A stretch of DNA of 64,000 bases from an uncultured Alphaproteobacteria bacterium (GTDB lineage: Bacteria > Pseudomonadota > Alphaproteobacteria > HIMB59 > GCA-002718135): the NCBI GenBank assembly GCA_902575375.1, contig CACGRD010000001.1, forward strand, positions 20,691-84,690. The letters run 5' to 3'. Made by a program: the position numbers and the translations under genes. The notes under the pieces were generated by a model. The model saw only the letters and a list, made by a program, of their open reading frames with translations, searched no databases and was not told the origin of the DNA. The first letter of the stretch is position 1. Each line of letters starts with the position of its first letter. This document shows positions 3,627 through 44,196 of this stretch, in pieces.

Positions 3627-4102
3627 ACAGTATTAGTCTAATAAATAAAAAGGAGCTATCTTCAGTCATTAAGTTTATGAATGATAATATTGATGAATAT
3701 AGTTATTTTAAAAAGATAGGATGGAGTCTAAAAAATATTGAAAGTCAATTTAACAAAGTTAATAATTATTCTCTTGGATATTTTAAGGCTAATAACCTAG
3801 TAGGATTTTTAATTGGTGATGCAATTAAAAATGATAAAGATTACGAATTAGAATTACATATTTTACTTGTATCAAAAGACCAAAGAAGAAAACAAATTGC
3901 GACTAAATTATTAAATTATGTTGAAACAAATATAATTAATTTTTCACAGATTTTCATTGAGGTTGCTGAAGATAATTTAGATGCGATAAGTTTTTATAAA
4001 AAAAACAACTTTGTTTTTTTAAATTTTAGACATAATTATTATAGATATAATGATAAAAATGTTCATGCTAAATGCTTTATAAAAAAAATTAATCATGAGT
4101 GA
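3623..4102 (+). CDS. rimI: RimI-like GNAT acetyltransferase
   Basis: RRKQIATKLL, IEVAEDNLDAISFY and RHNYY motifs; tsaB-rimI-miaB synteny; TTG start in TTGA overlap. Confidence 0.8.
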   Translation: MNSISLINKKELSSVIKFMNDNIDEYSYFKKIGWSLKNIESQFNKVNNYSLGYFKANNLVGFLIGDAIKNDKDYELELHILLVSKDQRRKQIATKLLNYVETNIINFSQIFIEVAEDNLDAISFYKKNNFVFLNFRHNYYRYNDKNVHAKCFIKKINHE

Positions 4103-5399
4103 TAAATATATTTATATAAAATCATATGGTTGTCAGATGAATGTATATGACAGCAATCGTATTAAAGATTTATTTTCAAATAAAGGATACAAGGTAACTG
4201 ATGATATCTCAAAGGCAGATTTAACTGTTTTGAACACGTGTCATATTAGAGAAAAGGCAGTTGAGAAAGTTTACTCTGATATTGGTAGGGTTAAAAAAAT
4301 TAAAGATAAAAAACAAAACATGAAATTAGTAGTTGCCGGTTGTGTAGCTCAAGCAGAGGGTCTCGAGATAAAAAAAAGATCACCGTCAGTTGATTATGTT
4401 GTAGGACCACAATCTTATCACAAACTTCCTAATATGATCGATAGAGTGGACGAAGTAGAAAATAGTGAATTTTTACAAAATGAAAAATTTAAAAACTTAA
4501 TTTTTAACTCTTCAAATTTATCATCTGAATTTTTATCTATTCAAGAAGGATGTGATAAATTCTGTTCTTTCTGTGTAGTGCCATACACCAGGGGGCCAGA
4601 ATTTTCTAGACCAGTTAATGATATTGTAGAAGAGACAAAAAAATATGTTTCAAATGGAATTAAAGAAATAATTTTACTAGGTCAAAATGTTAATGCCTAT
4701 CATGGTATTGCCTCTGATGGAAAATCAAAGGATCTTGCTTATTTGATTAATAAAATAGGTGAAATTGAAGAAATTAAGAGAATTAGATATATGACATCTC
4801 ATCCAATAGATATGAAAGATTCTCTAATTAATGCGCATGCCGACAATACAAAACTAATGCCATTTCTTCATCTACCTATTCAATCTGGCTCCGATAAAAT
4901 TTTAAAAAAAATGAATAGAAAACATACAGTTGAAGATTATTTAAAAATTGTAGAAAAAATAAGAAATGCCCGCCCTGATATCGCTCTTTCATCAGATTTT
5001 ATCGTTGGCTTTCCTGGAGAGACAGATAAAGATTTTGAAGATACAATGAAATTTATTGAAAAAGTTAATTTTGTTATTGCTTACTCATTTATTTATAGTC
5101 CGAGACCAGGAACACCTGCTCAAAATAAAGATAATATTAATATATTAGATAAAAAAGCACGTTTAAGTGCATTGCAATCTTTACTTACACAACAACAAAT
5201 AAATTTTAATAAGTCATTTGTTAATAAAGGTATGGAAGTATTATTTGAAAAAATTGGTAGACATAAAGACCAATTTATAGGCCGTACAATTTATAATCAA
5301 AGTACATTTGTTAATTCCAAAAAAGATTTACTAAATCAAATTATGAATGTTAAAATTATAAACTCAACTAATTTTGCTCTTGAATGTCAGATACATTAA
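4095..5399 (+). CDS. miaB: tRNA-i6A37 methylthiotransferase MiaB
   Basis: SYGCQMNVYDS, NTCHIREKA, radical SAM CDKFCSFC. Confidence 0.97.
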   Translation: MSDKYIYIKSYGCQMNVYDSNRIKDLFSNKGYKVTDDISKADLTVLNTCHIREKAVEKVYSDIGRVKKIKDKKQNMKLVVAGCVAQAEGLEIKKRSPSVDYVVGPQSYHKLPNMIDRVDEVENSEFLQNEKFKNLIFNSSNLSSEFLSIQEGCDKFCSFCVVPYTRGPEFSRPVNDIVEETKKYVSNGIKEIILLGQNVNAYHGIASDGKSKDLAYLINKIGEIEEIKRIRYMTSHPIDMKDSLINAHADNTKLMPFLHLPIQSGSDKILKKMNRKHTVEDYLKIVEKIRNARPDIALSSDFIVGFPGETDKDFEDTMKFIEKVNFVIAYSFIYSPRPGTPAQNKDNINILDKKARLSALQSLLTQQQINFNKSFVNKGMEVLFEKIGRHKDQFIGRTIYNQSTFVNSKKDLLNQIMNVKIINSTNFALECQIH

Positions 5400-36349: not shown

Positions 36350-39091
36350 ATGAATAAAAAGAGTAGATTGATACTAGTTGATGGATCAGCATACATTTTT
36401 AGAGCTTATTATGGTCTGCCTCCTATGAATCGCGCTGACGGAACCCCTATAAATGCTGTTTTTGGGTTTACTAATATGCTTGTAAAACTCATAGAAGATT
36501 ACAGTAATGACAAAATGATTGTAATTTTTGATGCTGCTAGAGAAAATTTCAGAAATAAAATTTATCCTGAATATAAAGCTAACAGAGGTGAAGCACCAGA
36601 TGATCTTATTCCTCAATTTCCACTAATCAGAGAGTGTGTAAAAAGTTTTAATATTCCTCAATTAGAAATAGAAGGATTTGAAGCTGATGATTTAATTGCT
36701 ACCTATGTTAAGTTGGCTGAAAAAGATGAAATTGAGACTATCATAGTTTCCTCAGATAAAGATTTAATGCAACTTGTTAGTAATAAAGTCACAATGCTTG
36801 ATCCAATGAAAAATAAAAAAATTGAAATAAAAGATGTTGAGGAAAAATTTGGTGTTAAACCTAATAAAGTTATTTTTATCCAAGCTTTAACAGGCGACAA
36901 AGTAGATAATATTCCGGGCGCTCCTGGAATTGGTCCAAAAACAGCTTCTCAGTTAATAAATGAATTTAAAGATATTGATGGTTTAATTAAAAATCTTGAT
37001 AAAATTAAACAAGAAAAAAGAAGAAATATTTTAGCAGAATCAGAAAATGACATTAGATTAAGTTTAAAACTTGTAACACTTAAAAACGATGTCCAAATAA
37101 CTGAGACCATTAATAGAATTAGAACTTATAATGAATTAAAAAATGAAAATAATAATATCTTTAATTTTCTTAAAGAGCAGGGCTTTAGATCAACATCTGA
37201 AAGATTAAAATCTAATTCTTTTATATCTAGTGATAATGATAATATAGTTCCAAAAAAAGAAATAAAACCAAAATATCAATTAATTAATTCAAAGAATCAT
37301 TTTGAAAAAGTTTTAAGTGAAATTAAAAAAAATGGTATTTGCGCTATAGATACTGAAACTAATTCACTCGATATAGAAAAAGCTAAATTAGTTGGTATAT
37401 CAATTTGTAGCAGTGAAAATATTTCTTATTATATTCCTATAAACCATACCAGTTTAGATGGTTCTAAAAAAATTGATAACCAGTTAGAGGAAAAATTTGT
37501 AATTAATCATATTAACAAAATATGTGAAAATGAATCTATCTTAAAAATTGGGCAAAATATAAAATATGATATTAGAATTTTAAATAAGTATGGAGTAATT
37601 TTTAATTCAATTGCAGATACAATGTTAATTTCCTATTCAATTGATAATGGAATTTTTAAACATAATTTAGATGATCTATCATTTAATCACTTAAATCATA
37701 CTACAATTAAGTATAAGGAAGTTGTTGGAACAGGGAAAAATGAAATTACTTTCGATAAAGTAACTATTGATAAAGCAATTAATTATGCTGCAGAAGATTC
37801 TCTATTAACATTCAGGCTTTTTCATCATCTTTACCCTCGTTTAATAAAAGAAAAGGCTAATTTTGTTTATCAAAATATTGATTTACCTCTTGTAGAGGTA
37901 TTATCTTCAATCGAGGCAAATGGTATTGAGGTAAATAAAGATTTTTTAACAAGCCTTAGTAATGAATTTGAGAATGAAAGTAAAAAACTTGAAAAGAATA
38001 TTTATAAACTTTCAAAAGAAGAGTTTAATATTGGCTCGCCTAAACAATTAGGAGAGATATTATTCGTTAATCTTAAAATACCTGGTGGTAAAAAAACAAA
38101 ATCAGGAACATATTCTACTGATTCATCAACTTTAAATAATTTAGCCTTAGATGGATTTGAAATTGCACAACTCGTTCTTGATTGGAGAGAATTAACAAAA
38201 CTTAAATCAACTTATACAGATGCTTTATTTAGATTAACAGATGATAAAAGTAGAGTTCATACATCATTTGGTTTAGCTAATACTTTAACAGGTCGATTAA
38301 GTTCTACAGACCCAAATCTTCAAAATATCCCAATTAGAACAGAAAATGGAAAAAAAATAAGAACAGCTTTTGTTAGTGGAAAAGGAAAAAAATTAGTCAG
38401 TTTTGATTATTCTCAAATAGAGCTTAGATTAGCCGCAGAAATTTCTAGTGATAAAAATTTTATTAAAGCTTTTAAAAACAATGAAGATATTCATGCATCA
38501 ACTGCTAAAGAAATATTTAATTTAAACGATAGTCAAATAAATAACGATTATAGAAGAAAAGCAAAAGCAATTAATTTTGGTATTTTATATGGAATTAGTC
38601 CATATGGTTTAGCTAAACAACTTGATATTTCCAATACAGAAGCAAAAGATTATATAAATGAGTATTTTATTAAATACCCAAAAATTAAAAAATATATGGA
38701 GCATCAAATTGATTTCGCAAAAACAAATCAATACGTTGAAACAATTTTTAAAAGGAAAATTAATATTAAGGGAATTGCCGATAAGAATTTTGCTGTTAGA
38801 GGTTTTGCAGAAAGACAAGCCATTAATGCACCAATCCAAGGTAGTGCAGCAGACATTATAAAGTTAGCAATGATAGAAATTCATAAGGAAATAAAACTTA
38901 AAAATATTGAGGCTGAAATGCTTTTACAAGTACATGATGAACTAATCTTTGAAGTCGAAACTAAAAAATATGACAATTTAGTAAGTAATGTAAAAAAGAT
39001 TATGGAGTCTGTACATTTAAAATACAAAGATTTTTCAGTTCCACTCACTGTTGATTTCGGTGCTGGTAATCATTGGGGACAGGCACATTAG
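36350..39091 (+). CDS. polA: DNA polymerase I
   Basis: 5'-exonuclease VDGS..FRAY/EADD, 3'-exonuclease DTET, polymerase DYSQIELR, KAINFGILYG, LQVHDEL. Confidence 0.99.
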   Translation: MNKKSRLILVDGSAYIFRAYYGLPPMNRADGTPINAVFGFTNMLVKLIEDYSNDKMIVIFDAARENFRNKIYPEYKANRGEAPDDLIPQFPLIRECVKSFNIPQLEIEGFEADDLIATYVKLAEKDEIETIIVSSDKDLMQLVSNKVTMLDPMKNKKIEIKDVEEKFGVKPNKVIFIQALTGDKVDNIPGAPGIGPKTASQLINEFKDIDGLIKNLDKIKQEKRRNILAESENDIRLSLKLVTLKNDVQITETINRIRTYNELKNENNNIFNFLKEQGFRSTSERLKSNSFISSDNDNIVPKKEIKPKYQLINSKNHFEKVLSEIKKNGICAIDTETNSLDIEKAKLVGISICSSENISYYIPINHTSLDGSKKIDNQLEEKFVINHINKICENESILKIGQNIKYDIRILNKYGVIFNSIADTMLISYSIDNGIFKHNLDDLSFNHLNHTTIKYKEVVGTGKNEITFDKVTIDKAINYAAEDSLLTFRLFHHLYPRLIKEKANFVYQNIDLPLVEVLSSIEANGIEVNKDFLTSLSNEFENESKKLEKNIYKLSKEEFNIGSPKQLGEILFVNLKIPGGKKTKSGTYSTDSSTLNNLALDGFEIAQLVLDWRELTKLKSTYTDALFRLTDDKSRVHTSFGLANTLTGRLSSTDPNLQNIPIRTENGKKIRTAFVSGKGKKLVSFDYSQIELRLAAEISSDKNFIKAFKNNEDIHASTAKEIFNLNDSQINNDYRRKAKAINFGILYGISPYGLAKQLDISNTEAKDYINEYFIKYPKIKKYMEHQIDFAKTNQYVETIFKRKINIKGIADKNFAVRGFAERQAINAPIQGSAADIIKLAMIEIHKEIKLKNIEAEMLLQVHDELIFEVETKKYDNLVSNVKKIMESVHLKYKDFSVPLTVDFGAGNHWGQAH

Positions 39092-39101
39092 AATACATTT
39101 T

Positions 39102-39230
39102 ATGGAAATAAAAAAAAAAATTAAGAAAAGAAATCCCTTTGCTCAAGATTTAAAACTACCTAAGTACAAACAAAGAATTGTTAGAAATAAGAAAACTTAC
39201 TCAAGAAAAGGAAAAAAAAAGGTTATTTAG
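39102..39230 (+). CDS. Small basic ArfA-like protein (42 aa; missing from ORF track)
   Basis: Manual translation MEIKKKIKKRNPFAQDLKLPKYKQRIVRNKKTYSRKGKKKVI*; fills the polA-grx gap; N..A..L..P.Y.QR...NKK..Y.RKGK pattern resembles the ArfA core. Confidence 0.7.
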   Translation: MEIKKKIKKRNPFAQDLKLPKYKQRIVRNKKTYSRKGKKKVI

Positions 39231-39466
39231 AATTCTTCATCAAAGGTATTCATTTCAAACCATTTTTCAAGTTCATGATACCCTCCAATTTTTTCACCAT
39301 TTAAAATTATTTGAGGAAAAGTTTTAGCGTTCGGAAACTTTTCAAAAAAATCTTCTCTCGTATAATCTGTATCAAGCATATAAATCTTTGGATTAAATTT
39401 AGCTAACCGTAGTTTAGCTCTATCACAGTATCCACAATTAGTTTTAGAGTATATCTCTGCTTCCAT
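39227..39466 (-). CDS. Dithiol glutaredoxin associated with RNR
   Basis: CGYC, TFPQI, IGGY; ATG 39466 in TGATG overlap with the nrdB stop (track uses TTG 39469). Confidence 0.9.
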   Translation of the reverse strand: MEAEIYSKTNCGYCDRAKLRLAKFNPKIYMLDTDYTREDFFEKFPNAKTFPQIILNGEKIGGYHELEKWFEMNTFDEEF

Positions 39467-40455
39467 CAAAATGCTTCATCAAAACTTAAAGCTCTATCTG
39501 TAGGTCGTTGATATTCAGATACCCTTTTTTCAAAAAAGTTAGTAACATTTTGTACATCTAAAGCTCTCATAAAATCAAAAGGATTTTCTGTTTTAAAGAC
39601 TCTGTCAAATTCAAATAGGTCAGCAATTCTGTCTGCAACAGCTTCAATATATTGACACATTAAGTCTTGATTCATACCAATTAAATCTACTGGTAAAGCA
39701 TCTCTTACAAATTCTTTTTCGAATGCTACTGCTTCTCTAACAATTTCTTCAAATTGTGATTGAGGCACATCTGAGGGTATCAAAGACAAATCACTAATAT
39801 CTGCATCAGTTAATGTTTTATTATTAAATTTATCTCTTAAAGTTCTAAACATAAGAGATGAGAAACTAAAATGCATTCCTTCGTCTCTTGCAATCCAGTC
39901 GTTAGATAAGGCTAAACCAGGTAATAACCCTCTTTTTCTGAAATAATATATTGCACAGAAAGAGCCAGCAAAAAATAAACCTTCAACTAATCCAAATCCT
40001 ATTAGTCTTGTTAATAAATTTTGACTACCATTGAGCCATTTTGATACCCATTGTGCTTTATGGTTAATACATGGTACGTTTTGTATTGCATCAAAAAGCA
40101 TGTCTTTTTCTTTTGCATCTTTTACATAAGCTTCAATTTGTAGACCATACATCTCTGCATGAATTGATTCATTCAACATTTGTATAGATATAAAACATCT
40201 TGCTTCAGGAATTAAAATTTCTTTGTAGAACCTACTTGCTAAGTTTTCATTAATCATTGCTTCGGAGTTAGCAAAATATGCAAGTACGTGCTTAATAAAA
40301 TGCTTTTCACCATCATTTAAAGTTTCAAGATCTCTTAAATCATCTTGCAAAGATACTTCTTCAGTTGTCCAAAAGGCTTGTATATGTTGTTTGTATCTAT
40401 CCCAAATTTCTTGGTTTTTTATTGGAAATATTGATTTAACTCCTTTTGATATCAT
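39466..40455 (-). CDS. nrdB: Class I ribonucleotide reductase beta subunit (eukaryote-like, first ligand Glu)
   Basis: FWT, ESIHAEMY, VEGLFF, RDEGMH, NFFEKRVSEY, terminal F. Confidence 0.96.
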   Translation of the reverse strand: MISKGVKSIFPIKNQEIWDRYKQHIQAFWTTEEVSLQDDLRDLETLNDGEKHFIKHVLAYFANSEAMINENLASRFYKEILIPEARCFISIQMLNESIHAEMYGLQIEAYVKDAKEKDMLFDAIQNVPCINHKAQWVSKWLNGSQNLLTRLIGFGLVEGLFFAGSFCAIYYFRKRGLLPGLALSNDWIARDEGMHFSFSSLMFRTLRDKFNNKTLTDADISDLSLIPSDVPQSQFEEIVREAVAFEKEFVRDALPVDLIGMNQDLMCQYIEAVADRIADLFEFDRVFKTENPFDFMRALDVQNVTNFFEKRVSEYQRPTDRALSFDEAF

Positions 40456-40469
40456 TCTTTACTCCTTCT

Positions 40470-43223
40470 TTATGCACTGCAAGTTTCGCAATCTTCTGGT
40501 TCATTGTTTTGTTTAATAGCAGTATTTATATAAGCATCTTTTGCTGCTTTTTCTGATGAAACTGTAACTTTTACAGCATCAACTGCTGATCTACTTCTGA
40601 GATAATACATTCCTGTTTTAAGACCTTTTTTCCAAGCATACATATGCATTGAATTAACTTTCCCAAATGTAGGCGTTGAAAGCCAAAGATTCATTGATTG
40701 GGTTTGATCAATAAATGGTGCTCTATCTGCTGACATATCTATGACAGTTTTTTGTGATACTTCCCAAACTGTTTTATAAACTTCTTTAAGTTCAGTTGGA
40801 ATTTCATTTATGTTTTCAACAGACCCATTTTCTAAAATTATTTTGTCTCTCATATCTTTATTCCACAGTCCTCTTTGAGAAAGTTCATTCACCAAATATC
40901 TATTTACAAGAAGGAACTCACCTGAGAGCGTTTGTCTTTTATATATATTAGAGGTTTGTATTTGGAATGTTTCAGTGTTACCTAATATAATGCCTGTTGA
41001 CGCAGTTGGCATACAAGCTGTGGTTAAAGAGTTTCTCACACCGTGCTCTTTAATTTTAGTTCTTAGCGAATCCCAATCCCATTTTGAAGACGGGTTAACA
41101 TTCCACAGATCAAATTGAAATTTACCTTCCGAAATTGGTGAATTTTTAAATGTTTCGTATGTTCCCTTTTCTTTTGCTAATTCACATGAAGCTTCTAAAG
41201 CTCCAAAGTAAATTGTTTCAAAAATTAATTTATTTATTTCTTTAGCCTCTTCAGAGTCATAAGCTATTCCTAACTTGAAGTAGACATCTGCAAGACCCTG
41301 TATTCCTAAACCTATTGGTCTGTGTTTATTATTAGATCTTTCCGTTTTATCAGTTGGATAAAAATTAATATCAATTACTTCATCTAAGTTTTTTGTGGCC
41401 AATTTTGCTGTTTCATAAAGAGCATCATAGTCATATATTAATTTTTTATCTGATTTTTTTACAAATTTTGGCAGAGCTATAGAAGCCAAGTTACATACAG
41501 ATGTCTCGTTCTTATCAGAGTATTCAACTATTTCTGCACACAGGTTTGAAGATTTAATAACACCAATATTTTTTTGGTTGGACTTGTTATTGATTGAGTC
41601 CTTATAGAGCATATAAGGCTGTCCTGTTTCTATCTGCGCTTCTATAATTTTAGACATTAGATCTCTTGCTTTAATTTTTTCTAAATGCTTCATTTCATTT
41701 TCATACTTAGTGTAAAGTTTTTCAAACTCGTCACCATATACATCTGAAAGACCCGGACATTCATGTTCACTCATAAGTGTCCATTCTTCATCATTTTCTA
41801 CTCTTTTCATGAATAAATCAGGTATCCATAAAGCATAAAACAAATCTCTCGCTCTAAATTCTTCGGCACCCGTATTTTTTCTAAGTTCTAGAAATTTCTC
41901 AATGTCAGCATGCCAAGGTTCTAAGTAAACTGCGAAAGAACCTTTTCTTTTTCCTCCACCTTGATCAACTGATTTAGCAGTTTCATTAAAAATTTTAAGA
42001 AATGGAATAAGACCATTAGATTTACCATTTGTTGATTTTATTCTACTTCCGCTTCCTCTAATGTTGTGAGCATGCATTCCGATACCGCCAGCAGTTTTTG
42101 ATATTAGCGCACAATCTTTGATAGTATTAAAAATACCTTCAATAGAATCATCTTCCATACCTATTAAAAAGCATGATGATAATTGCTGCATCTTTAATCC
42201 ACTATTAAACAATGTTGGAGTAGCATGTGTATACATACCACTAGATAGACTTTTATAGGTTTCTTTTATTTTATCTAAATTAAACTCGTTGCCTGTAACT
42301 GTTAAAGTTACTCTCATCCATAGGTCCTGAGGTCTTTCAATTGTTCTATTATCAAACTTTAACAAATAAGCTCTAATTAGTGTTGTAAGGGCAAAATAAT
42401 CAAATGTATAATCTTTGTCATAATCAATTATTGATTCTATTGCGCCAGCATTTTCCATCACTTTTTTAAAATACTCTTCTCTTAATAAACCATCATCGTA
42501 TAAATTTTTTGTTGCTATTATAAAACCTGGGGTTTCTTTATGTAATGAATTAACTTTTATTCTTGCGGCAAGATATGAATAATCAGGATGCTCTACTGTT
42601 AAAGCTGCTGCAGTTTCAGCAAGATAAGTGTCAATTTCAACAGAACTAATATCACTATACAATCCTGGAACTGCTTTTTGAACAACGACAATTGGATCAA
42701 TATTTAATCCAGTTGATAGAACTGAGACTCTGTTGGTTATTTTATCCAGTGAAATCGGCTCTTTACTTCCATCTCTTTTAGTTACCATCATTGAAGAAGC
42801 TTTTTCTCCAACTTGCTCTTTGAGTTTTTTAGTGTGATATCTAGAAGCTGCTCTTTGTTCTCTATATAGGACATATGCTCTAGCAACTTTATGATGCTCA
42901 TCTCTCATAAGTGCTAATTCCACTTGATCTTGTATATCTTCAATGTGAATCATGTCACCATCAGCAATCCTTCTTGTTAGAGCCGAGACAACTTTATGTG
43001 TTAAAGCTTCAACAGTTTTATGAATTCCATCTTGTTGTTCTTTTTCTTTATTTTTGTCATTTCTAATTTTTGTTTGTGCTAAGAATGCTTTTTTTATAGC
43101 ATTTGAAATTTTATCTGATTTGAAGGGAGTGATAGCTCCATCACGACGTACCACACTTAATGTTAAAATATTTACACTTTTTTCTTCCGGGATTTTTGCC
43201 GATACCTGTAGAATGTCTGCCAT
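40470..43223 (-). CDS. nrdA: Class I ribonucleotide reductase alpha subunit with two ATP cones
   Basis: ATPTLFNSG, LSSCF, SNLCAEI, VCNLAS, GMYYLR, C-terminal CETC; cones start VVRRDG and VTKRDG. Confidence 0.97.
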   Translation of the reverse strand: MADILQVSAKIPEEKSVNILTLSVVRRDGAITPFKSDKISNAIKKAFLAQTKIRNDKNKEKEQQDGIHKTVEALTHKVVSALTRRIADGDMIHIEDIQDQVELALMRDEHHKVARAYVLYREQRAASRYHTKKLKEQVGEKASSMMVTKRDGSKEPISLDKITNRVSVLSTGLNIDPIVVVQKAVPGLYSDISSVEIDTYLAETAAALTVEHPDYSYLAARIKVNSLHKETPGFIIATKNLYDDGLLREEYFKKVMENAGAIESIIDYDKDYTFDYFALTTLIRAYLLKFDNRTIERPQDLWMRVTLTVTGNEFNLDKIKETYKSLSSGMYTHATPTLFNSGLKMQQLSSCFLIGMEDDSIEGIFNTIKDCALISKTAGGIGMHAHNIRGSGSRIKSTNGKSNGLIPFLKIFNETAKSVDQGGGKRKGSFAVYLEPWHADIEKFLELRKNTGAEEFRARDLFYALWIPDLFMKRVENDEEWTLMSEHECPGLSDVYGDEFEKLYTKYENEMKHLEKIKARDLMSKIIEAQIETGQPYMLYKDSINNKSNQKNIGVIKSSNLCAEIVEYSDKNETSVCNLASIALPKFVKKSDKKLIYDYDALYETAKLATKNLDEVIDINFYPTDKTERSNNKHRPIGLGIQGLADVYFKLGIAYDSEEAKEINKLIFETIYFGALEASCELAKEKGTYETFKNSPISEGKFQFDLWNVNPSSKWDWDSLRTKIKEHGVRNSLTTACMPTASTGIILGNTETFQIQTSNIYKRQTLSGEFLLVNRYLVNELSQRGLWNKDMRDKIILENGSVENINEIPTELKEVYKTVWEVSQKTVIDMSADRAPFIDQTQSMNLWLSTPTFGKVNSMHMYAWKKGLKTGMYYLRSRSAVDAVKVTVSSEKAAKDAYINTAIKQNNEPEDCETCSA

Positions 43224-43261
43224 TTAAATCCTATCCATTTTCAAAAAATTATTGTCGAAAA

Positions 43262-43307
43262 ACACAATATGTAGTGCCGCCGAAAAGGGACAATACAACA
43301 TTTGCTC
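43262..43307. promoter_or_regulatory. NrdR box(es) upstream of nrdA
   Basis: ACACAATATGTAGTG (43262-43276) fits consensus acaCwAtATaTwGtg; weaker second copy ATACAACATTTGCTC 31 nt away (43293-43307). Confidence 0.75.
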
Positions 43308-43320
43308 AATATCGCAATAA

Positions 43321-43335
43321 GAACAAAATAAGAAC
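43321..43335. promoter_or_regulatory. Alphaproteobacterial LexA (SOS) box
   Basis: GAAC-AAAATAA-GAAC (GAAC-N7-GAAC; GTTC-N7-GTTC on the nrdA strand). Confidence 0.7.
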
Positions 43336-43360
43336 ATAAATATTTTTTTTCTCATGTCAA
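43333..43360 (-). promoter_or_regulatory. Putative sigma70 promoter of nrdA-nrdB-grx
   Basis: Minus strand TTGACA (43360-43355)-N16-TATGTT (43338-43333), overlapping the LexA box. Confidence 0.55.
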
Positions 43361-43511
43361 TCCCTTACTTAATTCATATTTTCAGGAGGCAAACAAGTTA
43401 TTGAAATATTTACATTTACTTATCAACTTAAGTCACATTTTGTTAAATTTATTTACTGAGTCATTTTTTCTTTGAACTTAAATCTGCCATAAATTATTAA
43501 TAAAAGGTAGT

Positions 43512-44196
43512 ATGACTAAGATAGCATTGGTTGATGACGAGCAGTCGATTCTCACATCAGTATCTCTTTCTCTCCAAAGTGAAGGGTTTACAGTAGATAC
43601 ATTTCTTAATGGAGTTGAGGCCCTAGAGGCTCTTGAAAGCAAATCTTATGATTTGGGATTGTTTGATATTAAGATGCCTAAAATGGATGGAAATGAACTT
43701 CTTTCAAAAGTGCGTTCGAGCAAGATTGAAAATCTAAAAGATCTTCCGATTATTTTTTTAACATCAAAAGATCATGAACAAGATGAGATTATTGGATTAA
43801 GAATGGGAGCTTCAGATTATATAAAAAAACCTTTTTCACAAAAATTATTAAATGAACGCATAAGAACAGTACTAAGAATTCATAACAATAGAACTGAAGA
43901 ACAAAAGGATAATAATATTAAAAAACAAAATTTTATAAAAGGTGATTTAATACTAGATGAAGATAAACAATTATGTTTTTGGAAAGGTATAGAAATTGAA
44001 CTTACGGTTGCAGAGTTTAATTTAATTAAATCTCTTGCTCAGTATCCTGGAGTAGTAAAGGATAGAAATCAATTAATGGACGCTATGTATGGTGATTCTA
44101 TATACGTTGATGATAGGACTATTGATAGCCATATAAAGAGATTAAGAAAAAAATTCAGATCTTATGATAATTCTTTTGACCAAATAAGAACAAGAT

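Follow-up and report, generated by a model that had tools for sequence, protein, structure and literature searches.

How class I ribonucleotide reductases (RNRs) recruit the redoxins that re-reduce them is poorly understood. A 2012 review stated that complexes of RNR with glutaredoxin or thioredoxin had not yet been observed (PMC3267527; papers are cited here by their PMC numbers), and the first RNR-redoxin complex to be seen, in 2025, was that of Bacillus subtilis TrxA with NrdE, imaged in turnover using cryo-electron microscopy (cryo-EM) (PMC11903788). In that system the redoxin docks on the large subunit, alpha, for the re-reduction half-cycle, by way of an aromatic patch on alpha (W623, F624, F625) and a hydrophobic pocket on TrxA, and the same work predicts that enzymes of the NrdAe type (a subclass name taken from PMC9669993 and PMC11903788) are without the TrxA patch and "likely use alternative mechanisms". 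Here we describe a glutaredoxin (Grx) encoded behind nrdA and nrdB of a eukaryote-type RNR in a 64,000-nucleotide stretch of DNA from an uncultured Alphaproteobacteria bacterium; we call this whole stretch the window. The Grx ends in a short acidic tail that resembles the C-terminal docking tail of the small subunit, beta, and is a putative ligand of the site on alpha that receives that tail.

Several kinds of described systems come close to this locus. The first are the fusions of Grx to NrdB, such as the Grx::ATP-cone::NrdB protein of Facklamia ignava and those of Francisella and a vibrio-phage, which keep a dedicated Grx at a class I RNR by way of beta, and of which the Facklamia protein is an efficient RNR reductant (PMC6187632). 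Those fusions are covalent and N-terminal, whereas the window Grx is a separate protein with its own copy of a beta tail; grx genes are otherwise usually located away from nrdAB (PMC6187632). The second is the NrdH-redoxin of class Ib operons, also a Grx-like redoxin encoded with RNR genes, but one from another RNR class (NrdEF), with thioredoxin reductase as its reductant (PMC6187632). The third are peptide ligands taken from the R2 (beta) C-terminus, namely mouse P7 and the yeast Rnr2 and Rnr4 peptides on Rnr1 (PDB 1zzd series), which are likewise acidic heptapeptides with a free terminal Phe; here, by comparison, it is a redoxin that naturally ends in the peptide, which belongs neither to a small subunit nor to a synthetic inhibitor. 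Glutaredoxins dedicated to RNR are already known, and what is new is the proposed recruitment by tail mimicry. The preliminary description of this DNA knew of no described example of such a Grx, and we likewise found no description of a redoxin with a beta-like tail in the full-text literature, subscription-only papers and supplementary tables (for example Table S1 of PMC6187632) aside.

A glutaredoxin that ends like the small subunit beside it

The features on which the comparison rests are these.

39227..39466, minus strand: grx, encoding a 79-residue dithiol glutaredoxin with active site CGYC (C11, C14); stop codon at 39227-39229
39230..39250, minus strand: Grx C-terminal tail NTFDEEF, residues 73-79, from the translation; a disordered extension past the last helix
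39466..40455, minus strand: nrdB, encoding a 329-residue eukaryote-type RNR small subunit (PF00268, 9e-89); stop codon at 39466-39468
39469..39489, minus strand: NrdB C-terminal tail LSFDEAF, the presumed alpha-docking heptapeptide, its role assigned by homology with mouse R2 FTLDADF and the yeast R2 peptide (PMC3483043)
40470..43223, minus strand: nrdA, encoding a 917-residue eukaryote-type RNR large subunit (PF02867, PF00317, and PF03477 in two stretches)
40638..40757, minus strand: NrdA residues 823-862, holding the subsite 2 equivalents S823, Q824, K825, I828, K855, S858, M859 and Y862, by alignment to yeast Rnr1
40479..40490, minus strand: redox pair C912-E-T-C915 at the NrdA C-terminus, which Grx is expected to reduce; the protein ends EDCETCSA

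The three genes follow one another as nrdA, nrdB and grx on the minus strand from 39227 to 43223. We place the grx start at the ATG at 39466-39464, which has one base in common with the TGA of nrdB (TGATG), and we discarded a TTG one codon upstream because homologues begin MEAE, MEVE or MDVE. Grx and NrdB are not fused: nrdB ends in TGA and grx lies in another frame, and wherever a related locus was read on the operon strand, the two are again separate open reading frames (ORFs).

Directly before their stop codons, Grx ends ...KWFEMNTFDEEF and NrdB ends ...RALSFDEAF, which gives the terminal heptapeptides NTFDEEF and LSFDEAF. Within the assembly to which the window belongs (1.09 Mb, 66% complete, SAR11-type), 64 of the 1239 ORFs of at least 70 residues end in Phe, and just three carry the ending [DEN][DE]xF, namely Grx, NrdB and one weak case (...NEMF). 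The resemblance between Grx and NrdB at the protein level exceeds chance.

The tail sits behind an otherwise recognizable glutaredoxin. The protein matches PF00462 over residues 4-59 (35.5 bits against a cut-off of 22.9), and the NCBIfam models GRX_bact, GRX_euk and GrxA all match it below their cut-offs, with no NrdH model among its NCBIfam matches. It shares with the E. coli-type Grx1/GrxA, the hydrogen donor of class Ia RNR, its small size, the dithiol site, the cis-Pro motif TxP and the GG motif, and the GrxA models NF008401 and TIGR02183 cover nearly its full length; it differs in scoring far under their equivalog cut-offs (36 against 84 bits and 23.2 against 106.5 bits), in being operon-encoded and tail-bearing, and in a mostly CGYC active site (58 of the 107 full-length homologues described below). 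It is therefore GrxA-like and, at NCBI thresholds, no member of the GrxA equivalog. Across 59 Grx sequences C11, C14, P51, G61 and G62 are invariant, and the motifs C11-G-Y-C14, T49-F-P51 and G61-G62 as wholes are invariant or nearly so. An AlphaFold2 model built on a 59-row alignment (predicted local distance difference test, pLDDT, 88.5) has the thioredoxin fold, with the topology beta-alpha-beta-alpha-beta-beta-alpha and a last helix at residues 63-72. Residues 73-79 are coil in this model and 76-79 fall below pLDDT 50, so the tail is a flexible add-on beyond a complete Grx fold, in agreement with the earlier remark that ordinary Grx domains end shortly after the GGxxxL helix. What the tail presents is a free C-terminal Phe after acidic residues on a flexible segment.

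Conservation of the tail

A word-indexed search with the window Grx gave 172 matches, of which the best 120 were listed, all with at least 65% identity; a full-length filter (78-84 residues and the GG...W motif) kept 107 of these 120. Within this set the terminal residue is Phe in 106 and Tyr in one. Counting back from it, position -1 is Asp, Asn or Glu in 103/107, position -2 is Glu in 90/107 and position -6 is Asn in 104/107, whereas at position -4 there is Pro in 66 and Phe in 22, and Pro at -4 together with Phe at -7 is the arrangement in most. Positions -1 to -3 are filled by acidic or amide residues, while the upstream hydrophobic anchor is variable. Among the 13 sequences that the filter removed, the same Phe-ended tail is seen in three, DENI is the end of one and nine have other ends; P0081, P0092 and P0098, which belong to these nine, look like different Grx types. 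Another of the nine has an end that is presumably the translation of a sequencing adapter.

The gene and its tail are also kept at the level of the locus. Grx is present in 37 of 41 related genomes, and the four genomes without the gene are 56-70% complete. We fetched 30 related loci, and all 13 that read on the operon strand, from two families of the order, have nrdA-nrdB-grx with such tails: NrdB ends SFDEAF, SFDDAF or SFDESF, and Grx ends TFDEEF, SFEEDF, SFNEDF or KPDDDF. The other 17 loci lie in reverse orientation and leave only polA and a small basic ORF visible, both of which the window has too. In a sample of about 200 class-level genomes, one from outside the order (G178) carries this operon, with NrdB ending SFNEEF and Grx ending NSEEEF, and the more distant Grx proteins of G131 and G219 have ordinary ends and are not linked to nrd genes. 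An exhaustive search of 50%-identity clusters confined acidic Phe-ended tails to this clade among the 150 best representatives, with the exception of P0283, an 86-residue protein that has a longer, unrelated linker and still ends CFDEDF. Relatives of P0283 occur in three alphaproteobacterial metagenome-assembled genomes (MAGs) of 2.6-3.0 Mb, where grx stands behind eukaryote-type nrdAB, NrdB ends SFNEDEDF, KFEEDF or SFDEEF, and Grx ends HFDNDDF, DFQDDF or NSEEDF. In one MAG, of 3.0 Mb (L123:3354-4987), ORFs of 312 and 240 residues lie between nrdB and the tail-bearing grx. Neither the sequence nor the length of the linker is conserved, and the Phe ending persists in relatives of 47-62% identity whose linkers are unrelated. 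A terminal Phe that is found in 106 of 107 homologues and that survives, behind diverged linkers, in lineages of as little as 47% identity argues for purifying selection on the tail.

This conservation bears on a simple explanation for the resemblance, namely that the 3' end of nrdB was copied locally, by duplication or gene conversion, and that the tail is the neutral, functionless scar. The preliminary description had pointed to the likeness of the two tails and to an identical 10-mer at both 3' ends, TTTGATGAAG at 39235-39244 and 39474-39483, and translation together with a 10-mer search confirmed both. Such an identical word is what a scar would leave, but it reads TTT-GAT-GAA-G on the coding strand, the preferred Phe-Asp-Glu codons of an AT-rich genome, and the window has four copies of it where 0.7 would be expected. 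The codons around the two copies also differ, with AGT in one case and ACC in the other before the 10-mer, and GCA TTT against GAA TTC after it. Preferred codons, four copies and unlike flanks mean that the 10-mer is no evidence of duplication, and with the tail kept across fully diverged linkers we reject this explanation as extremely improbable.

The enzyme and its peptide pocket

The closest solved relatives of NrdA are human RRM1 (5d1y, 3hnc) and yeast Rnr1 (1zyz), with E about 1e-277 and ~60% identity to the human enzyme, a drug target, and E. coli R1 follows at just 1e-73; NrdB matches mouse and human R2 with E of 1e-90 to 1e-89. We accordingly treat the enzyme as a eukaryote-type (NrdAe/NrdBe-like) class Ia RNR, an assignment made by closest solved relatives and tails, not by formal phylogeny. 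Homologue searches with NrdA gave just relatives of at least 85% identity and added no diversity to the alignment, and a search for NrdB in 300 genomes of the phylum at E <= 1e-60, a threshold too strict to map the subclass, returned the own genome alone. As side observations on the two subunits, NrdA residues 1-140 (42800-43223, minus strand) form an extra N-terminal ATP-cone: Pfam places two ATP-cone stretches in NrdA, human and yeast R1, each with one, align only from residue 139-145, and with Pseudomonas aeruginosa NrdA (5im3) the alignment begins at residue 22. Compared with mouse and human R2, NrdB contains at residues about 208-232 (39760-39840, minus strand) an insert of ~20 residues (..NNKTLTDADISDLSLIPSDVPQ..) that separates the two aligned blocks.

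In enzymes of this type the C-terminus of beta binds a pocket on alpha, and peptides of that tail inhibit by competing for alpha, as the preliminary description noted and as PMC3483043 reports; the mouse R2 heptapeptide Ac-FTLDADF (P7) inhibits mouse RNR with a half-maximal inhibitory concentration (IC50) of 8.9 uM (PMC3483043). The preliminary description also drew a parallel with yeast Sml1, said to depend on an acidic Phe-terminated tail; Sml1 has no mention in the available text of PMC3267527 and appears in that of PMC3483043 only in the reference list. The yeast R1 site is divided into a broad, hydrophobic and unspecific subsite 1 (V342, E343, Q386, W389, L393, M721, G722, T725, F729) and a narrow subsite 2 (S691, Q692, K693, I696, K723, S726, M727, Y730) whose high specificity is for the terminal Phe together with its carboxylate, with Asp-6 of the peptide pairing with K693 (PMC3483043).

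We mapped these residues onto NrdA by hand, on the ungapped HMMER alignment with yeast Rnr1. All eight subsite 2 residues are identical (S823, Q824, K825, I828, K855, S858, M859, Y862), and three of the nine subsite 1 residues are, with hydrophobic replacements at the others. In an alignment of 34 NrdA rows (20 SAR11-type and 14 phage), the subsite 2 pattern SQKIKSMY stands in 18 of the 20 SAR11-type rows and the other two have one change each (SQKIMSMY, SQRIKSMY); the subsite 1 pattern is kept in all 20, and both patterns are missing from all 14 phage NrdAs. C912 and C915 are invariant throughout the 34 sequences. The Grx tail, strict at its terminus and variable upstream, shows the same pattern as this site, which is specific in subsite 2 and unspecific in subsite 1 (PMC3483043). 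The likeness to the R2 peptides extends to the pocket for the terminal Phe and carboxylate, with its identical residues, and to the last residue being the most conserved one, while the difference lies in the upstream anchor of Grx, which is mostly Pro at -4 and Phe at -7, and in a subsite 1 that is mostly not yeast-identical.

Tail type and reductase type

Close phage relatives of the window Grx, from viral contigs and 61-79% identical to it, all are without the acidic Phe tail, ending instead ...IIKQENNNEGHTTRSG, ...ELDGLSF, ...DLNDLSV or ...KWLEKTS.

L038:4001-4267, L039:187-399, L040:3270-3491, L041:1353-1565, L042 and L043: tail-less phage grx

In the three NrdAs from these contigs that are readable at the subsite 2 positions, the residues are DQAVRNIR (L038), DQNIAKVQ and DQNVAKVQ (L039, L041), and the basic pocket is therefore missing. 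A tree from the fold columns alone (103 rows, 72 columns, quick method) places the tail-bearing cellular Grx and the phage Grx of this type in one group (SH-like approximate likelihood-ratio test, SH-aLRT, support 91), with L038 beside the window Grx (SH-aLRT 85). Any RNR visible on their contigs belongs to another type, and these phage proteins look like a host-derived gene with a differing tail in a phage setting. The MAG loci L123 and L124 have the pocket SQRIQSMY, in which the equivalents of K825 and K855 are Arg and Gln, and Asp stands at -1 in both NrdB and Grx; this single event hints at a possible trace of co-adaptation.

A second, unrelated tail was found in marine phages. We collected 80 viral loci, on which the order nrdA-nrdB-grx is common and of which 57 have both NrdB and Grx (47 distinct pairs). 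A monophyletic marine-phage Grx clade among them (20 distinct rows, SH-aLRT 94) carries an extension of ~10 residues ending ..[DE]T[GNS][YF][NT]GTG[HYF][ST]L, and in most members the grx start overlaps the nrdB stop (ATGA).

L048, L051, L062, L064, L065, L067, L068, L074, L078, L080-L083, L085, L088, L090, L097-L101, L103, L108, L111, L112 and L115: marine-phage loci of this tail clade, with grx near 4001-4243 in most

The NrdB beside these Grx proteins is of E. coli type (E. coli R2, 1e-123) and ends ..DTFKGFSL, KGFTL, SGMSL, EGFQL or KDFKL (in general ..G[FM][STKQ]L), aligning there with the ..TDDLGDFE end of 7mdi_E. Across the viral loci 31 of 57 NrdB and 22 of 80 Grx proteins terminate in G[FYHWM][STKQ]L, and none of 52 NrdA and none of 1279 other ORFs of at least 70 residues do so, counts that overstate independence, as the loci are mutually related. 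Other phage Grx proteins encoded beside nrdB have no such tail, and in three annotated phage regions grx lies apart from nrdB; the tail clade has no relative of at least 60% identity among 50,697 phage records. In both Grx lineages the tail resembles the end of its own type of NrdB, which amounts to covariation at the level of tail class.

These comparisons bear on the possibility that the tail is functional but its likeness to NrdB convergent or coincidental, with some other role such as contacting a protein of the glutathione system or NrdB itself, being recognized by a protease or chaperone that handles both proteins, or capping the last helix. The Asn at -6 and the prevalent Pro at -4, unlike anything in NrdB, would fit a partner of that kind, as would the fact that acidic C-termini are common among small proteins. 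One would then have to accept, however, that apart from Grx the motif has one clear carrier in the genome, the adjacent NrdB, that the tail is missing in close phage relatives whose NrdA lacks the pocket, and that in the second Grx clade the copied NrdB ending is a different one, carried by no further ORF of those loci. We consider this explanation rather unlikely.

Proposed docking on the beta-tail site

A beta-tail mimic docking on the NrdA peptide site is probably the most economical reading of these observations. We propose that NTFDEEF is a short and flexible linear motif in which the docking end of NrdB, LSFDEAF, is copied. Its terminal Phe and free carboxylate would insert into the narrow basic subsite 2 of NrdA, the usual seat of the terminal Phe of beta, and the acidic residues before the Phe would pair with the pocket lysines. 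Binding would be weak, micromolar like that of the free heptapeptide, and Grx would lose to beta2 by avidity; being monomeric and single-tailed, where beta2 has two tails, it would be expected to bind transiently and not to displace beta2. It could occupy pockets that beta leaves free, whether because an alpha oligomer has fewer beta than alpha subunits or because the enzyme is in its re-reduction half-cycle, and docking would keep it near CETC, the mobile C-terminal pair of NrdA that it would reduce. Mammalian RNR is reported to be mainly alpha6beta2 at physiological concentrations (PMC3267527), and in such a stoichiometry beta-tail sites may stay free. We infer pocket binding of low affinity, and tethering over inhibition. 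We take nrdA-nrdB-grx as one operon for a eukaryote-type class Ia RNR and its dedicated dithiol glutaredoxin, and the reading of this Grx as a monovalent beta-tail mimic that tethers the reductant to NrdA at the beta-tail site is given about an even chance.

The idea that this Grx may dock at the beta-tail pocket of NrdA was already put forward in the preliminary description. It has since gained the conservation of the tail among nrdAB-linked Grx orthologues, which that description had named as a check, and the way in which tail type follows RNR type, while binding as such, and the choice between a tether and a switch, are argued from sequence. A complex prediction of NrdA 143-917 (34 rows) with Grx (59 rows), made without controls, gave a median ipSAE of 0.21 (0.41, 0.21, 0.07) against a mark of 0.32 and speaks neither for nor against binding.

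Several points weigh against the docking proposal. At -4, the place of a Phe in NrdB, most Grx tails show Pro, and the near-invariant Asn at -6 is without a counterpart in NrdB, so the tail must also be under constraints of its own. One tail-less phage Grx, that of L038, stands beside an NrdB that nevertheless ends ..WDDAF. Our samples are less independent than their numbers suggest, since the related genomes are not independent of one another and the tail has about two origins. In an approximately unbiased (AU) test, a tree that keeps the 20 tail-bearers as one group, and the tail-less phage Grx outside it, is not rejected (p 0.244). We therefore claim an association of the tail with RNR type and not a loss of the tail; tail loss on transfer to phages was considered and set aside as unproven, since the alternative tree stands. 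The expected covariation of the Grx and NrdB tails holds for tail class (acidic-Phe against GTG[HYF][ST]L) and not at the level of residues, where the subsite 2 positions are near-invariant in the clade and fine pocket-tail covariation has no power. Lastly, in cryo-EM of a class Ib RNR in turnover the beta C-terminus is bound on both sides of alpha2 (PMC11903788), which would leave no free site in an alpha2beta2 enzyme.

The same pocket could also be bound to a different end. Grx might compete with NrdB and throttle RNR, perhaps in a redox-dependent manner, as a natural inhibitor akin to the R2 peptides, which act by exactly such competition (PMC3483043). The one-base overlap of grx and nrdB is compatible with coupled and similar expression, which would offer two tails to each alpha pocket, and the class Ib enzyme, with both its pockets filled by beta in turnover (PMC11903788), points the same way. 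On the other hand, an inhibitor made from the same message as its target would be costly in a streamlined genome, and the intact dithiol site CGYC with its invariant cysteines is what one would expect of a working reductant. One Grx tail against the two of beta2 should compete weakly, and nothing in the sequence ties exposure of the tail, which is disordered in the model, to redox state. We regard such a switch as improbable.

If tethering by the tail is correct, it would be one of the alternative mechanisms left for NrdAe-type enzymes. The tail is found in SAR11-type bacteria, among the most abundant organisms of the sea, and the peptide site of the human homologue is already an inhibitor target. 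A mechanism that works by copying the beta tail has the further merit of being readable in sequence and easily tested with peptides. We speculate, more tentatively and at somewhat less than an even chance, that beta-tail copying is a general and repeatedly evolved route for RNR-dedicated redoxins, present in at least two independent Grx lineages (the acidic Phe-ended tail with eukaryote-type RNR in SAR11-like bacteria, and GTG[HYF][ST]L with E. coli-type RNR in marine T4-like phages), with the beta-tail cleft of alpha serving as a landing pad for beta and Grx in turn. Such a route would offer the first handle encoded in sequence on the re-reduction half-cycle of NrdAe-type enzymes, to which those of eukaryotes, humans included, belong. 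If the phage case holds as well, tail mimicry could become a rule that predicts which redoxin of a genome belongs with which RNR.

Gene neighbourhood

Database matches of NrdA and Grx are named "Pelagibacteraceae bacterium" and "Alphaproteobacteria bacterium". An Rfam scan of 39000-43700 at E <= 0.1 matched no riboswitch or known RNA element. On the far side of grx, polA converges on nrdA-nrdB-grx from the opposite direction, and between polA and grx lies a very basic ORF of 42 codons (MEIKKKIKKRNPFAQDL...KGKKKVI; 39102-39230, plus strand), whose stop region overlaps that of grx convergently. Compared with Pfam it gives nothing significant (DUF7230, E 3.9). It is kept in the genus, ending ..NKKTYSRKGKKKVI in L001-L013, and it looks ArfA-like.

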